Positions 5,426 to 11,914 are shown, numbered from the stretch's first letter. The stretch is 11,914 nucleotides of DNA from a virus (IMGVR_UViG_2671180884_000016:1-11914), one strand, 5' to 3'. Numbers and translations: made by a program. The notes: generated by a model not told the origin, from the letters alone.

Positions 5426-6358
5426 TCACACCTGTGAGAGTAATTCAGGGTTGGTATAAACCTCTTTAAAGGCCGCATTAATATGTTTTTCTGTCAGCGC
5501 CGCGCCTTCACCGCTGGCGGTGAGCCACGCCTGGTTAAGCGTATGTGTCAGAACGCGTAACGCTCCCGGCTTTTCAGCGATAGCCTGCATGACGGCCAGC
5601 TCGGCCTCACCACTGATCCCCCACGCCCTGGCAATGGCCAGCACATCCGCCTTTTTGGCCTTGCGAAGTTGTTTTGTACGGGCAAGACGGCTGAACAGGC
5701 GCGATAAATCATCAAAGGCGCGGCGTCCACCTTTAAACAATCCGCGCGGGTTACCAATAAGCACCATCCCGATCCCCGTGGCGTCCTGAATTGCCCGGAG
5801 TTGCTCCAGACCGTCAATACCAAGATGATCCGCCTCATCCACAATCACCAGTCCACGCGTTCCCATCAGGCGACGGCGGATGGCGCGGGATAATGCCCCT
5901 TTGTTCGCGCGGGTGTAATCAATCCCCAGCGCATCGGCCAGCTCCAGCAGACACTCCGTGACGCTGGAGTGCGCGGGTGACAGGGTGATCATCCAGGTGT
6001 TTGGTTGCTCCTGGCAGTAATTACGGGCAGTGGCCGTTTTACCCACACCCGGTACGCCCACAATAACGTTAATACAGCCCATCAGACGAACCGCCTGAAA
6101 CAGTGCGCGCAGCTCCTGGACTGTCTGCGTTTCCACAAACTGCGGCGGTTCCGGCAGTGCGCTTTGTTTATTCCAGTTCTCATACCAGGAACGCAGGGAA
6201 GCAGCCACAGCAGCGTTATCGCCTTTATATTTTCCCTTACGGAAAGCCGATAATGTGCCGTCGGAAATTCCCGCCTCTCTGGCGATGGCATACTGCGTCA
6301 GTACGCCGCCATCAATAAGTTCATCAATGGTCTTGATTACATCGTTAATATCAGTCAT
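5426..6358 (-). CDS. B: Mu B-like DNA transposition protein (AAA+ ATPase target-DNA activator)
   Basis: 310 aa. N-terminal HTH-like region, Walker A GVPGVGKT, Walker B-like LVIVDEADHL; directly downstream of the transposase as in Mu. SD GAGAGG upstream. Confidence 0.85.
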   Translation of the reverse strand: MTDINDVIKTIDELIDGGVLTQYAIAREAGISDGTLSAFRKGKYKGDNAAVAASLRSWYENWNKQSALPEPPQFVETQTVQELRALFQAVRLMGCINVIVGVPGVGKTATARNYCQEQPNTWMITLSPAHSSVTECLLELADALGIDYTRANKGALSRAIRRRLMGTRGLVIVDEADHLGIDGLEQLRAIQDATGIGMVLIGNPRGLFKGGRRAFDDLSRLFSRLARTKQLRKAKKADVLAIARAWGISGEAELAVMQAIAEKPGALRVLTHTLNQAWLTASGEGAALTEKHINAAFKEVYTNPELLSQV

Positions 6359-6396: not shown

Positions 6397-6430
6397 AACC
6401 TGAGTCGCCGCTCGGGTTATTTTTTTATTT
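6397..6430 (+). terminator. hairpin plus T-tract in the A-B intergenic spacer, best formed on the plus (antisense) strand
   Basis: aacctgag / ctcgggtt stem (8 bp, one G-U) with 6-nt loop, followed by atttttttattt on the plus strand. Confidence 0.3.
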
Positions 6431-8538
6431 CAGGCCAGCGGGTCATTTTCTTTTAATTTCGCTTCCAGCAACTGCAATCCCCGCTGGAAATTACGCTCGT
6501 ATTCTTCATCAGGTTCATCGTCAGCGACCGGTTGCTGAACGGTCACCGTATTACCCACAGGGCGGTATATGTTTTCCAGCCAGGGCTCCTGCGGCTTGTG
6601 CTCCAGCACGTTGACAACCTCATCCTCGGCATCACGGATTTTTTCCTCTGCGCGTTTACGCATGCCTTTAAGGCGTTGCTGCTGTTTGTAGTATTCCGCG
6701 CTAACCGGGAAGGCTTCGCGTTTATTACCGTCCCATACCGCCTCGCAAATCACGCTGCCATCCAGGCGACGTACGGTAATTCGTTCGGCATCATGAATGT
6801 CATAGCTGATAAGCACCTTACGACCATGCTCGTCACGCAGCTCGGGCGCGTAGTAAATATTATTCAGCCAGCGTATTTCACAGCGTCTTACAGGGCGTTC
6901 CACCATCGGCCGGAACATATCCCGCAGCTCAACATCGGACAGCCATTCAATTTCCGTGTCCTCTTCCGCCAGGCGTTTTTTTCTGAACTCCGCCGGGCTG
7001 TAATGCTTGCCGTTCGGCTTCACCGGTAATTCATCGTGCGGCCGGTTGTTGTACCACTCAACACCGTCACGAATGGCATCAATCAGTTCAGACCAGGACG
7101 GTAAATCACGCATCGCTGACTGCTGCCGGGCGTTCAGCCGTTTGCCCTGTTGCAGGGCAGTAAATGCCGAGCGTAAATCGCGGTTGGTTTTGCGTAACGT
7201 CTCGCGATCTGCACCTTTCCCGAAATAGGTGCGGTATTTACGGGCTATGCGCATCGGTAATGTGCGGTTAAGCCGTTCGATAATGCCTCGTCCCTGCGGA
7301 TTACCGGCAATCCCGGTCGGGTGATTAATCCCCAGTCGCGGCAGTATCCCCACAACCTCCTTATCCAGGATGTCGGCGGTTTCCCCGGAGCCGTTATCCG
7401 AGTAATACAGAAACGGTTTGCCGTGATGGCGAATGCCGTGCTGTATGGCACCGGCTACGGCGAAAACATTTTCAGCCAGGTCAAGGCTCCAGCCCACCAC
7501 AAAGCGCGTGCCACCGTCGATAACAAAGGTCACTTCCGGTGCAAATGGCCGACCGTGAACCGGGTGTGCGCATTTCAGCTTCATGCCGTGACCGTCACCA
7601 ATCCAGACATAATTCACCGGCATTTTTGACCAGTCGCGGCGCGTGAATCCCTCAAGCTGGCGGTATTCACTGCCGGTCACCCGGCCTTTTTGTTTCACCA
7701 CTTCCGGCAGTTTCTTCATTGCGCGGCGAATGGTGTCATAAGACGGCATGATATCGAGCATATAAGGCTCATCAGCGTGCCGGTGCTGCCATTCAGCGAC
7801 AAAATCCTCGTAAGCCTCGGTCATTGGTCGGCCGTTTGACTGGCGATACTGCGCCAGAAATTCGGGCAGCCAGTTAATATCTTCGGCTTTTATTTCCTGG
7901 CGCTTACCCGGTGCCAGTAAAAGCAGGCGTTCAGCGGCGTTCTGCGCCTTGTTAAAGGCCGCAATCCAGCGTTTCAGCGTTATTTCACTCAACGCACGGC
8001 TGTTTCCCTTTTTGGCGTTCGCCGTCTCAACCATTGCCACAATGCGCTCGTCCAGTTGCGAACGTGCCAGGTTGTCAACGATAAACCGGATAGCTTTCGC
8101 GCAGCTGAAACCGGGTTGTTGCGCGACTTTCATCACTTCGCTGACGATCGCGATTCGTGCATCAGCCACCTGGCGCTGGTTTTCAGTCAGGGCATTGAGG
8201 CGTTCGACCATCAGTTGTGGTGATCCGCGATATGCCTCCACCGCATCAACCACGTCAGATGAGCGTCTGGCCTTTGTCACCACCGGAGCCGGTGATTCAT
8301 CGGCTTTTTGCGTCATCAGTTGCAGGGCATAGCGTTCGCGTACTGCCTGCTGAACAGTTAAAGGCAAAGCTCCTATTTCACACTCTAAAACTTTCCCTTT
8401 TACCCCTGGTTTTAGCCGCGTTTTCCACGCTTCCCTCTTTGCTTTTTTGTGCAGACCTGCCAAAGAACTAGGTAGGTCACTGAATGAAATCAATTCAGTC
8501 ATTGCAACCCACATATTTCCTCCGCGCACGTCGTTCAT
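6430..8538 (-). CDS. A: Mu A-like DDE transposase (N-terminal repressor-like DNA-binding domain, central rve-type catalytic core, C-terminal domain)
   Basis: 702 aa; size and position (after ner, before B) match MuA. N-terminal ...SDLPSSLAGLHKKAKREAWKTR... parallels the adjacent repressor. Start may be the internal ATG at 8514 (MWVAMTEL); either start overlaps the ner 3' end. Confidence 0.9.
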   Translation of the reverse strand: MNDVRGGNMWVAMTELISFSDLPSSLAGLHKKAKREAWKTRLKPGVKGKVLECEIGALPLTVQQAVRERYALQLMTQKADESPAPVVTKARRSSDVVDAVEAYRGSPQLMVERLNALTENQRQVADARIAIVSEVMKVAQQPGFSCAKAIRFIVDNLARSQLDERIVAMVETANAKKGNSRALSEITLKRWIAAFNKAQNAAERLLLLAPGKRQEIKAEDINWLPEFLAQYRQSNGRPMTEAYEDFVAEWQHRHADEPYMLDIMPSYDTIRRAMKKLPEVVKQKGRVTGSEYRQLEGFTRRDWSKMPVNYVWIGDGHGMKLKCAHPVHGRPFAPEVTFVIDGGTRFVVGWSLDLAENVFAVAGAIQHGIRHHGKPFLYYSDNGSGETADILDKEVVGILPRLGINHPTGIAGNPQGRGIIERLNRTLPMRIARKYRTYFGKGADRETLRKTNRDLRSAFTALQQGKRLNARQQSAMRDLPSWSELIDAIRDGVEWYNNRPHDELPVKPNGKHYSPAEFRKKRLAEEDTEIEWLSDVELRDMFRPMVERPVRRCEIRWLNNIYYAPELRDEHGRKVLISYDIHDAERITVRRLDGSVICEAVWDGNKREAFPVSAEYYKQQQRLKGMRKRAEEKIRDAEDEVVNVLEHKPQEPWLENIYRPVGNTVTVQQPVADDEPDEEYERNFQRGLQLLEAKLKENDPLA

Positions 8539-8957: not shown

Positions 8958-9476
8958 ATGGAGTTTGATATGATCCTTGACCAAGAATGGATCCTTGCCA
9001 GTGACTTGTTGGGGGTTGGAGGTCTTCCTTCATCTCTGGCTGGGCTTCATAAACGAGCAAAAAATGAAGGATGGGAAAAACGTTCGGTAACTACACCTGG
9101 TATCAGAGGGAGAGCATTTGCCTACCGTTTAAGCGACTTACCTGCACATGTTGTTTCCATCATTACAGGTAGTGCAGAAATAAAACACCAGCCCCCTCAA
9201 AAGAACGGTGGCAATAGCGAGTTGCTCGAACTCATCGACACTTTGAGCCAAGAAGAGCAAGAATTAGTTATTTACACCTTGAGAAGGAAAGGGGTAGAAA
9301 AATTGCTGGAATTCTGCAATCAAGAGAATCAAGAGTTGATCGCTTTAACAGGTATTCGACGCCTGGCAGCATTGAGCCTTAATAATTTATCAGATCAAAA
9401 GGTTAGAGAGATTTTCGAGGGAGATGAAACCAAGGATCATCATTTCAATTTAACCCATAAAGAAGCCAAAGCGTAA
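8958..9476 (+). CDS. c: Mu c-type repressor (lysogeny maintenance); likely true start at ATG 8970
   Basis: 172 aa, divergent from ner. N-terminal ...GGLPSSLAGLHKRAKNEGWEKR... matches the transposase N-terminus, the known MuA/Mu-repressor relationship. GGAG SD 6 nt before the ATG at 8970. Confidence 0.75.
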   Translation: MEFDMILDQEWILASDLLGVGGLPSSLAGLHKRAKNEGWEKRSVTTPGIRGRAFAYRLSDLPAHVVSIITGSAEIKHQPPQKNGGNSELLELIDTLSQEEQELVIYTLRRKGVEKLLEFCNQENQELIALTGIRRLAALSLNNLSDQKVREIFEGDETKDHHFNLTHKEAKA

Positions 9477-9775: not shown

Positions 9776-10022
9776 GTTACACTCTGCACTGCCGGGCGAT
9801 ATCCTGCTGTGCTGCTTCGGCGCATCGGTGGCTAATCATGCCGCCATTTACTGCGGCAACGGTGAACTGCTTCACCATCTGCCTGAACAACTGAGTAAAC
9901 GGGAGAGGTATTCCGAAAAATGGCAACGACGAACGCATTCTGTCTGGCGTCACCGCCACTGGCACGCATCTGCCTTCACGGGGATTTACAACGATTTGGC
10001 CGCCGCTTCAGCCTGTATGTGA
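9768..10022 (+). pseudogene. K: 5'-truncated remnant of lambdoid tail assembly protein K (C-terminal about 84 codons only)
   Basis: In-frame translation ...LHSALPGDILLCCFGASVANHAAIYCGNGELLHHLPEQLSKRERYSEKWQRRTHSVWRHRHWHASAFTGIYNDLAAAS matches the lambda K C-terminus as recalled. An in-frame stop at 9765-9767 lies immediately upstream, with no ATG and no N-terminal K coding sequence. Confidence 0.7.
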
Positions 10023-10600
10023 ACACGGCGGCGGAAGCCATCCGCGCCCTGTCGCTGCAGGTGCCGGGATTCCGCCGTCAGATGAACGAAGGCTGGTACC
10101 AGATACGCATTGCCGGTGAGGATACGGCACCGGAGGCGGTGTATGCCCGCCTTCACGAACCACTGGGTGAGGGAACGGTTATCCATATTGTGCCGCGACT
10201 GGCCGGAGCCGGAAAGGGCGGACTACAGATTGTGCTGGGGGCAGCTGCCATTGTGGGGTCTTTCTTCACGGCCGGAGCATCAATGGCGTTATGGGGTTCA
10301 GCCCTGGCAGCCGGTGGTTTTTCTGCCACCACGATGCTGTTTTCACTGGGTGCCAGCATGATACTGGGCGGTGTGGCCCAGATGCTGGCCCCGAAGGCAA
10401 AAACACCGGATTACCGCGCAACGGATAACGGCAGACAGAACACGTATTTTTCCTCACTGGACAACATGATTGCCCAGGGCAACCCGATGCCGGTGCCCTA
10501 CGGTGAAATGCTGGTTGGTTCACGACGTATCTCTCAGGACATCAGCACCCGTGATGAAGGCGGAGACGGAAAGGTGGTGGTTATTGGTCGACAGGGATAA
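9920..10600 (+). CDS. I: lambdoid tail assembly protein I
   Basis: 226 aa, MATTNAFCLASPPLARICLHGDLQRFGRR...GKQNTYFSSLDNM..., closely parallels lambda gpI; overlaps the K 3' end as in lambda-like tail modules. Confidence 0.9.
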   Translation: MATTNAFCLASPPLARICLHGDLQRFGRRFSLYVNTAAEAIRALSLQVPGFRRQMNEGWYQIRIAGEDTAPEAVYARLHEPLGEGTVIHIVPRLAGAGKGGLQIVLGAAAIVGSFFTAGASMALWGSALAAGGFSATTMLFSLGASMILGGVAQMLAPKAKTPDYRATDNGRQNTYFSSLDNMIAQGNPMPVPYGEMLVGSRRISQDISTRDEGGDGKVVVIGRQG

Positions 10601-10603
10601 AAC

Positions 10604-10639
10604 ATAAAAAAATCCCGCAGTGATCGCGGAGCTGCGGGG
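10604..10639 (-). terminator. rho-independent terminator-like hairpin, minus-strand orientation, just downstream of the I stop
   Basis: Stem tcccgcag / ctgcggga (8 bp) with 11-nt loop; on the minus strand the stem is followed by TTTTTTTAT (plus-strand A-run 10606-10612). Confidence 0.4.
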
Positions 10640-10812
10640 ACAGACAAATGAAGATTAATGTTAAGGAGTTGTTTTTGTTACTCGGGCAAAAAAACACTAA
10701 CGCAGCGAAATTATAAGCGCCACAGTCAGTGTGTGAAAATGTGAAGATATTCAGAATTTTTATGCCATTACCGGTTTTAACCAACAGGATTATCGGTGGG
10801 CATGAAAGAAAA

Positions 10813-10845
10813 CCCCGGTATCTGCTGATACCGGGGTTTCTGTTT
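10813..10845. terminator. bidirectional rho-independent terminator-like hairpin in the I-J spacer
   Basis: Perfect 10-bp stem ccccggtatc / gataccgggg with 4-nt loop, flanked by gaaagaaaa upstream and tttctgttt downstream (T-rich on both strands). Confidence 0.5.
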
Positions 10846-10942
10846 AGCATGGCAGAAATGTGTTTCATGCTTTTCGGGCGAAGGATATCCGACTTCTGTA
10901 CGGAATGGCAAGTGGCGGTTAATTTATTCAGGGGAAGGCTGT

Positions 10943-11914
10943 ATGGGAAAAGGTGGCGGTAAGGCACACACGCCTCGTGAGGCGAAGGATAATCTCAAAT
11001 CCACGCAGATGATGAGCGTGATTGATGCGATTGGTGAGGGACCCATTGAAGGTCCGGTGAAAGGCCTGCAGAGTATTCTGGTGAACAAAACCCCGCTGAC
11101 GGACACGGACGGTAATCCCGTGATACACGGTGTGACCGCGGTCTGGCGCGCCGGGGAGCAGGAGCAGACACCACCGGAAGGCTTTGAGTCCTCCGGAGCT
11201 GAAACTGTACTGGGTGTGGAAGTGACGAAGGCAAAACCGGTGACACGCACCATTACGTCAGCGAACATTGACCGCCTGCGGGTGACCTTCGGGGTGCAGT
11301 CACTGGTGGAGACCACGTCAAAGGGTGACCGTAATCCGTCCTCTGTCCGTCTGCTGATTCAGTTACAGCGTAACGGTAACTGGGTGACAGAAAAGGATGT
11401 CACCATTAACGGCAAGACCACCTCACAGTTCCTGGCCTCGGTGATTCTGGATAATCTGCCTCCCCGCCCCTTTAACATCCGGATGGTCAGGGAGACGGCG
11501 GACAGCACCACGGACCAGCTGCAGAACAGAACGCTGTGGTCGTCATACACCGAAATCATCGATGTGAAACAGTGCTACCCGAACACGGCCATTGTGGGGA
11601 TGCAGGTGGATGCGGAGCAGTTTGGTGGTCAGCAGATGACGGTGAACTACCATATCCGCGGTCGCATCATCCAGGTGCCGTCAAACTATGACCCGGAAAA
11701 ACGCACGTACAGTGGTATCTGGGACGGCAGTCTGAAACCGGCATACAGCAACAACCCGGCCTGGTGCCTGTGGGACATGCTGACTCACCCGCGCTACGGG
11801 ATGGGAAAACGCCTGGGGGCGGCGGATGTGGACAAGTGGGCGCTGTATGCCATCGGGCAGTACTGCGACCAGACGGTCCCGGATGGATTCGGGGGCACAG
11901 AGCCGCGGATGACC
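10943..11914 (+). CDS. J: lambdoid host specificity / central tail fibre protein J, N-terminal 324 aa; continues beyond window end
   Basis: Translation MGKGGGKAHTPREAKDNLKSTQMMSVIDAIGEGPIEGPVKGLQSILVNKTPL...PPRPFNIRM...LWSSYTEIIDVKQCYPNTAIVG...SNNPAWCLWDMLTHPRYGMGKRLGAADVDKWALY... is near-collinear with lambda gpJ; SD GGGGAAGG upstream; open to the window edge. Confidence 0.95.
   Translation, partial: MGKGGGKAHTPREAKDNLKSTQMMSVIDAIGEGPIEGPVKGLQSILVNKTPLTDTDGNPVIHGVTAVWRAGEQEQTPPEGFESSGAETVLGVEVTKAKPVTRTITSANIDRLRVTFGVQSLVETTSKGDRNPSSVRLLIQLQRNGNWVTEKDVTINGKTTSQFLASVILDNLPPRPFNIRMVRETADSTTDQLQNRTLWSSYTEIIDVKQCYPNTAIVGMQVDAEQFGGQQMTVNYHIRGRIIQVPSNYDPEKRTYSGIWDGSLKPAYSNNPAWCLWDMLTHPRYGMGKRLGAADVDKWALYAIGQYCDQTVPDGFGGTEPRMT

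Follow-up and report, generated by a model that had tools for sequence, protein, structure and literature searches.

What is encoded between tail genes I and J of a lambdoid prophage, and why should hairpins resembling terminators stand inside a tail operon? The stretch of DNA analysed here (the window) comprises 11,914 nucleotides of the viral contig IMGVR_UViG_2671180884_000016. A preliminary description, made from the sequence alone, put the gap between the I stop and the J start at about 340 bp, and measurement bears this out at 342 bp. The most probable answer is that the I-J spacer is a moron slot of a lambdoid prophage whose left half is the small RNA gene pasB and whose right half is a separate recombination module. 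Confidence is high for this explanation as a whole, covering the identity of pasB, its mode of expression and the role of the right-half module.

The I-J spacer and its surroundings

The spacer extends from 10601 to 10942, between the TAA of I at 10598-10600 and the ATG of J at 10943. The protein-coding features in and near the tail region are as follows.

5426-6358, minus strand: MuB
6430-8538, minus strand: MuA
8958-9476, plus strand: Mu-like repressor-like ORF
10019-10600, plus strand: tail assembly gene I (Pfam Lambda_tail_I, E = 6e-9; the identical sequence in RefSeq is a tail assembly protein)
10943-11914, plus strand: 5′ part of tail tip gene J, which runs past the end of the window (Pfam FNIII-A_GpJ, E = 2.5e-41; gpJ in RefSeq)

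Positions 1 to about 9781 form the left end of a Mu-like prophage, with the end near 9781 (...GGTTACA). It is inserted in tail gene K, which survives from about 9786 as its C-terminal NlpC/P60 part alone, so that I and J have lost their connection to the lambdoid late promoter.

Of 5426 complete E. coli genomes, 1612 match a 431-bp query across the spacer, as do 51 phage records. Among the RefSeq and phage records listed, none annotates a gene between I and J, barring an occasional hypothetical ORF; a 77-aa plus-strand ORF, for example, is hypothetical in the annotation of phage ASU11. A minus-strand frame of 128 codons with a GTG start (10581-10967) covers the spacer from end to end, pasB included, and presumably arose by chance. 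Neither of these two ORFs nor the micro-ORF discussed below has a Pfam or PHROG match. An Rfam search of the window at E <= 1 yields nothing beyond a snoRNA match in J that is due to chance; Rfam 15 has no PasB entry, and the spacers of E2348/69 and Sakai, together with a tandem-array locus, give no Rfam match for the PasB family. What genome annotation has left out at this junction is a regulatory RNA gene, as the preliminary description correctly flagged.

The left half of the spacer: pasB and its promoter

The features of the left half and its border are listed here.

10606-10703, minus strand: pasB sRNA gene (annotated 83-nt form 10688-10606; promoter-predicted start about 10703, about 98 nt)
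10606-10638, minus strand: Rho-independent terminator of PasB (stem 10638-10632/10620-10614, 11-nt loop, then A and U7 at 10613-10606)
10648-10716, plus strand: 22-codon micro-ORF antisense to pasB, present in the sequence and judged non-coding
10710-10737, minus strand: pasB promoter (-35 TTCACA 10737-10732, 16-nt spacer, -10 TATAAT 10715-10710)
10737-10758: CRP-like box AAATGTGA-AGATAT-TCAGA-ATT, just upstream of the pasB -35
10757-10784, minus strand: TTGGTT-16-TAAAAA site (7/12 match, without T at -10 position 6, below the scan threshold)

The minus strand at 10688-10606 is identical at 81 of 83 positions (97.6%) to PasB (pathogenicity-associated sRNA B) of EPEC O127:H6 E2348/69 (NC_011601.1 1466343-1466261). 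The mismatches fall at positions 27 and 33, the former being the site of the variant PasB-2 (10.64898/2026.05.13.724894). Of the 85 bases upstream of pasB, 78 are identical to E2348/69, and since every mismatch lies beyond the CRP-like box the pasB promoter itself is the same in both. The published Northern probe AATCCCGCAGTGATCGCGGAGCT (PMC8550237) matches the plus strand exactly at 10611-10633 and is thus complementary to a minus-strand RNA. The PasB record in table S6 of the same study gives 83 nt, minus strand, prophage PP6, between E2348C_1436 and E2348C_1437 (PMC8550237); in the fetched E2348/69 locus these genes are I, ending at 1466255, and J, starting at 1466496. In the window as in E2348/69, pasB lies 5 nt past the I stop on the opposite strand. 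By sequence and position the left-half element is the already published sRNA PasB, and the minus-strand regulatory RNA that had been proposed to end at the first hairpin is thereby accounted for. As its core has been published, the locus adds no new kind of element.

In E2348/69 PasB gives a Northern band of about 83 nt and requires Hfq for stability, its level in an hfq mutant changing by log2FC -6.8 and -2.4 (PMC8550237). RIL-seq yielded 37 unique partners, 30 of them CDS or 5′UTR, and almost every chimeric fragment with PasB has it as RNA2 (fractions 1.0 and 0.99; PMC8550237). It is commoner in overnight static LB than in DMEM (PMC8550237). A preprint on the distribution of Pas sRNAs places PasB within a phage structural-gene operon and describes it as often the sole Pas sRNA of a genome and as common in extraintestinal isolates (10.64898/2026.05.13.724894).

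The promoter TTCACA-16-TATAAT matches the consensus at 11 of 12 positions in a promoter scan and is identical in E2348/69. It predicts a start near G10703 and a transcript that begins GCGUUAGUG and, with its end in the U7 run at 10612-10606, has a length of about 98 nt. The annotated 5′ end at 10688, published from read coverage and an approximate band size (PMC8550237), lies 15 nt downstream of this predicted start; the difference may come from poor read coverage of the U-rich leader or from processing of the 5′ end. The RNA size of 100-150 nt given in the preliminary description thus has to be lowered to about 83 nt for the annotated form, or to about 98 nt if transcription begins at the predicted start. 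Its promoter, TTGGTT/TAAAAA, is present but weak (7/12), and it is not the pasB promoter because its -35 lies in the right-hand module, which is absent from the PasB-expressing E2348/69.

The first hairpin reads on the plus strand CCCGCAG (10614-10620), an 11-nt loop and CTGCGGG (10632-10638). A scan of 10400-11100 reports it, with the stem given as 10630-10614 and ATTTTTTTAT after it on the minus strand, as the sole terminator. Scan and fold agree with the earlier reading of a minus-strand terminator-like hairpin right after I, which is now recognised as the PasB terminator. The 7-U tract in the window equals the longest U tract given for PasB in the RIL-seq table, 7 (PMC8550237).

The copy of pasB in the window is predicted from these signals to be expressed, with transcription probably starting near 10703. 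Transcription from the near-consensus sigma-70 promoter at 10737-10710 would proceed toward I, opposite to the tail operon, and would stop at the Rho-independent terminator 5 nt past the I stop to give an RNA of about 83-98 nt. From its identity with the E2348/69 RNA, the product would be an Hfq-stabilised, trans-acting base-pairing sRNA made in the lysogen, with many core and accessory mRNA partners. During lytic growth the Q-modified late transcript would be expected to read through both hairpins of the spacer. Late transcription in phage lambda is antiterminated by Q and passes terminators. Late operons are described as frequent sites of morons that bring their own promoter and terminator (Juhala et al. 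2000, cited in PMC4104026). With Q-antiterminated read-through and tolerated morons, and with a sodC-like gene found at the I-J junction of another prophage (see below), a terminator within the late tail operon is not the anomaly that it was at first taken to be.

The CRP-like box agrees with the 22-bp consensus (TGTGA-N6-TCACA) at 14 of its 16 specified bases and is the sole match to it in the window at <= 2 mismatches, with 0.02 expected by chance; for the 16-bp core with one mismatch, 0.4 matches are expected by chance. Its centre at 10747.5 lies at about -44.5 from the predicted start at 10703, which is 3 bp off the canonical class II position (-41.5) if that start is correct, and at -59.5 to -61.5 from the annotated 5′ end at 10688. 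The block TGTGA-N6-TCAGA, with six different N6, occurs in 63 of 73 unique terminator-anchored sequences, a sample that is not fully independent because 60 of the 73 also hold the motif that anchored an earlier search. The ten sequences lacking the block comprise four sodC-linked copies without a promoter of their own and six apparently unrelated matches; all 63 unique family units with their own promoter region keep it. CRP may control pasB through 10737-10758. Spot 42 is an RNA repressed by CRP. In the same data set that describes PasB, Spot 42 was about 5-fold lower in stationary LB and PasB was higher (PMC8550237), a pattern consistent with activation by CRP and confounded by growth phase and oxygen. 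The preprint on Pas distribution contains no mention of a promoter, CRP, cAMP or a transcription factor (10.64898/2026.05.13.724894). A conserved CRP-like box in the promoters of the pasB family offers a handle on when PasB is made.

Three other accounts of the left half have to be weighed against pasB as a trans-acting sRNA. The model offered at the outset, an antisense RNA of 100-150 nt from TTGGTT/TAAAAA together with a translated micro-ORF, would in effect be a type I toxin-antitoxin-like pair. Both the promoter-like motif and the 22-codon frame do exist, a GGGGA stands 7 nt upstream of the micro-ORF ATG and the peptide has a short hydrophobic stretch. The frame is not conserved: among 64 unique family sequences the start is ATG in 31, ACG or ACA in 31 and unalignable in 2, and where the ATG is present the ORF has 12-52 codons, frameshifts and unrelated C-termini. 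With the start missing in about half of the unique alleles, the reading frame not kept, a peptide too polar for a membrane toxin and no Pfam or PHROG family match, the 64 alleles hold no conserved, translatable hydrophobic ORF opposite the sRNA such as defines type I systems. As for the promoter, the match is weak at 7/12, and E2348/69 makes PasB even though it lacks this -35. Judged from the alleles, the micro-ORF is an accidental reading frame on the pasB antisense strand, and a toxin-antitoxin-like pair is extremely improbable.

That the spacer makes no functional RNA here and is a decaying remnant of a prophage with a broken tail operon is suggested by the Mu-like prophage that interrupts K about 800 bp upstream. 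Having its own promoter, independent of the late operon, pasB should be unaffected by that insertion; its promoter, terminator and body are intact and it is 97.6% identical to an expressed copy, which makes decay very unlikely. Somewhat less remote, and still improbable, is a mainly cis-acting PasB which, being complementary to the I-J junction of the late mRNA, would lead to cleavage, uncouple I from J in lytic growth or be titrated by the late transcript. The gene is indeed antisense within the late operon and ends 5 nt past the I stop. Against this, RIL-seq gives 37 trans partners with neither I nor J among the RIL-seq rows listed, and PasB is expressed in lysogens, in which the tail genes are nearly silent (BaseMean 5-15; PMC8550237). 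In the window the operon is severed by the Mu-like prophage, yet the pasB region is intact. The body also varies between alleles regardless of complementarity, which is automatic for an antisense gene. The preferred reading of the left half therefore remains that of a self-contained pasB gene whose product would act in trans.

Allelic diversity and the right-hand module

The pasB region (10601-10768) occurs at 5545 places in 1814 of the 5426 E. coli genomes, with up to 11 per genome, and this count, like that for the whole spacer (1612/5426), fits the report of PasB as widespread. The best identity per record is at least 99% in 857 records, 80-90% in 627 and 60-80% in 219. The PasB family is thus larger than the published BLAST survey with a word size of 28 captured and reaches about one in three complete E. 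coli genomes. An alignment was made of 22 representatives, less than 93% identical to one another, taken from 62 unique family sequences of viral contigs. The terminator stem is invariant, the loop and body are variable and the promoter is conserved, the -10 being TATAAT, AATAAT, GATAAT or TATCAT in nearly all of the 22 alleles. Conserved besides the -10 hexamer are the first bases GCGUUA and the motif AAUCUUC, and CUCCUU is mostly so. The CUCCUU motif (plus-strand AAGGAG, 10664-10669) may be an anti-Shine-Dalgarno-like seed.

Some prophages carry tandem arrays of 2-4 minus-strand sRNA-like units between I and J (L169 324-1232, L172 4023-4444, L185 7295-7716, L161 4419-4784 and L165 454-702). 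Each unit has a terminator, a variable body, a -10 and a TGTGA-N6-TCAGA block. One type of unit has another terminator, CCTCCCG...CGGGAGCG followed by TTTTTT, and gives no Rfam match. At a further locus (L134 100-1000, SFGJ01000116.1) the I-J spacer is about 855 bp long and contains, on the minus strand, a sodC-like gene for a Cu,Zn superoxide dismutase that has a hairpin of its own. The sodC-like gene is followed by a pasB-like body and terminator without the usual promoter or CRP box, an arrangement that may represent a 3′UTR-type sRNA.

A scan of contigs with the I protein returned 13 loci, too few for a comparison across genera. Tail I at 92-100% identity to that of E. coli prophages was found on short contigs labelled Streptomyces flavalbus, Parendozoicomonas haliclonae and Clostridiales MAG (L125, L127 and L134), which are most likely assembly contamination. 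In a contig labelled Geobacteraceae MAG (L129) the I match has 41% identity, the same level as in Enterobacter loci, and this label may be wrong.

Alignments with E2348/69, Sakai Sp15 and phage PhiR12_1 break at about 10769. The right half has the following features, the last of them hypothetical.

10769-10942: right-hand module, near-invariant, 174 bp, in place of the shorter J-side module of E2348/69 and Sakai
10810-10845: hairpin 2 (10-bp GC-rich stem 10813-10836 with A-run and T-run flanks; bidirectional-terminator-like)
10804-10911, minus strand: candidate second minus-strand unit (TTGCCA-18-TATCCT at 10911-10882, start about 10875, small stem-loop, A-rich linker, hairpin, UUUUCUUUC, end about 10804)

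A count over the 5426 genomes gives 1694 places for the right-hand module, spread over 1446 of them; identity is never below 95% and reaches at least 99% in 1328 records. Strains carrying the long spacer include CFT073 (NC_004431.1, near 1364310) and 2018-166. A blastn search of the E. coli genomes with word size 11 showed no distant relatives below 95% identity, and sensitive blastn against 1.9 Mb of fetched prophage DNA returned only the hairpin's own reverse complement. The module also stands next to pasB alleles with an identity of only about 82%. Per-site diversity among 32 unique sequences is as follows.

10837-10942: 0.006
J 5′ end: 0.026
I 3′ end: 0.13
pasB body: 0.25

The low values in 10837-10942 and in the 5′ end of J indicate that the module travels as one block with the start of J, and their near-invariance may reflect constraint or recent spread. 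E2348/69, Sakai Sp15 and PhiR12_1 have a short module instead. In E2348/69 and Sakai it ends about 92-102 bp past the CRP box; its plus-strand terminator reads CAGGCA[C/T]CC-loop-GG[G/A]TGCCTG and then TTGTTTTT. Its hairpin has one covarying pair with both intermediates present, so covariation does not tell the strands apart.

Hairpin 2 was originally described as a perfect 10-bp, bidirectional-terminator-like structure. The stem, CCCCGGTATC/GATACCGGGG with the loop TGCT, is indeed perfect and extends to 13 bp with the flanking AAA/TTT, and folds that include it are strong against shuffled sequences (z = -6.2 on the minus strand and -5.2 on the plus strand). The terminator scan, however, flagged it on neither strand, in our reading because the A and T runs are absorbed into the stem and leave too few T in the tail window. 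Downstream of the stem stand UUUUCUUUC on the minus strand and UUUCUGUUU on the plus strand, the latter being UUUCUCUUU in most copies. No plus-strand promoter able to use the hairpin was found, either at 9/12 or better in the scan or by eye. Hairpin 2 is most likely a terminator or insulator between pasB and J; nothing in the analysis supports a regulatory role for it.

In one viral contig (u15) an IS3-family element sits in the right-hand module just upstream of hairpin 2, at about 10793, and this copy is apparently the same as a 1456-bp variant. Another (L200 3833-4124) has a precise deletion of hairpin 2 between AGAAA repeats. The module hence tolerates disruption in at least some copies.

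A different role for the right half would be to encode a second minus-strand sRNA of about 70 nt (about 10875-10804) with a weak promoter of its own and hairpin 2 as its terminator, making this a two-sRNA locus. The minus-strand UUUUCUUUC after hairpin 2 is a better U tract than the plus-strand UUUCUGUUU, a 9/12 promoter match lies at 10911-10882 and the predicted fold resembles that of an sRNA in its stem-loop, A-rich linker and terminator (two hairpins, z = -6.2). The tandem arrays of 2-4 minus-strand units at the I-J junction of other prophages, and a near-invariant module beside a variable pasB, point the same way. The promoter is weak (TATCCT), though, in a region where chance alone would give about 0.8 such sites; the candidate lacks the CRP-like block seen upstream of every other unit, its supposed terminator went unflagged in the scan and is lost in one contig, and the invariance could equally stem from recent spread as a block with the 5′ end of J. 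A second sRNA is accordingly a tentative proposal at best. Much the same doubt applies to the broader view of the I-J junction as a dedicated cassette site for diversifying CRP-controlled, Hfq-binding sRNAs, which would share promoter, CRP box and terminator stem, differ in their bodies and stand in 1-4 tandem units, with the 174-bp module encoding a further minus-strand sRNA of about 70 nt that ends at hairpin 2. The reading preferred here is that of a single sRNA gene beside a separate recombination module, the very widespread, invariant 174 bp next to J.

Relation to known prophage sRNAs

Three Hfq CRAC peaks from EHEC O157:H7 Sakai, EcOnc22, EcOnc23 and EcOnc24, are antisense to tail genes, and their RNAs give a Northern band of about 85 nt and lose stability when Hfq is missing (Tree et al. 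2014, PMC4104026). The I-J spacers of Sp15, Sp14 and Sp11 in Sakai are 240 bp long and each contain a pasB homologue of about 80% identity.

NC_002695.2 2902691-2902930: Sakai I-J spacer (L004)
NC_002695.2 2676622-2676861: Sakai I-J spacer (L005)
NC_002695.2 2166672-2166911: Sakai I-J spacer (L006)

Taken at face value, the table coordinates of EcOnc22-24 lie about 23 nt from the J start. That table (S2) follows the older NC_002695.1 numbering. At AgvB, the one site compared (1.94 Mb), NC_002695.2 coordinates are shifted upward by 137-146 nt. When the same shift is applied to EcOnc22-24, the peaks fall on the pasB homologue (terminator 2902894-2902919). EcOnc22-24 are thus probably the homologues of pasB with about 80% identity, as judged from a shift at that one site; the link between them and PasB is not made in the cited PasB and CRAC papers. 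They resemble PasB in location (the I-J spacers of Sp15, Sp14 and Sp11), size, Hfq dependence and architecture, and differ from the element in the window in body sequence and in having a J-side module of the short type.

Other known sRNAs were considered and set aside. AgvB/AsxR, HnrS and PasA/C/D were rejected because those with a documented position sit elsewhere in prophages. HnrS (EcOnc10-12) is described as a 66-nt sRNA that is encoded among late genes in EHEC/EPEC prophages and base-pairs at the hha RBS; by that description it is 99% restricted to EHEC/EPEC, against a spacer common in other pathotypes. EcOnc33 and EcOnc54, tried as matches for hairpin 2, both lie elsewhere in Sp6. When collinearity with strain TB21-1 was used to look for a long-spacer copy in Sakai, the corresponding position fell among flagellar genes. 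RF02702 and RF02703 have no match in the window at E <= 1, and the same method finds AgvB in a Sakai control locus.

AgvB and AsxR (RF02702, RF02703) are nevertheless instructive relatives in kind. Like PasB they are Hfq-binding sRNAs of prophage morons with their own promoter and terminator, and as in the pasB family the ends are conserved and the target-specifying part is variable. They differ in lying downstream of PR′/Q rather than between I and J and in being shorter (51-60 nt), and no sponge activity is known for PasB. In its putative control by CRP pasB would be comparable to cyaR, a CRP-activated sRNA gene. Such genes have a near-consensus CRP box just upstream of the promoter, as pasB does; the centre of the pasB box lies at about -44.5 rather than -41.5. 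The closest counterpart is PasB of E2348/69 (PMC8550237; 10.64898/2026.05.13.724894), which has the same locus, strand, promoter and terminator and an exact probe match. The J-side half of that locus is about 70 bp long with a plus-strand-only terminator, whereas the window has 174 bp with a bidirectional-looking hairpin, and unlike the PasB locus of E2348/69 the copy in the window resides in a host prophage disrupted by a Mu-like element.
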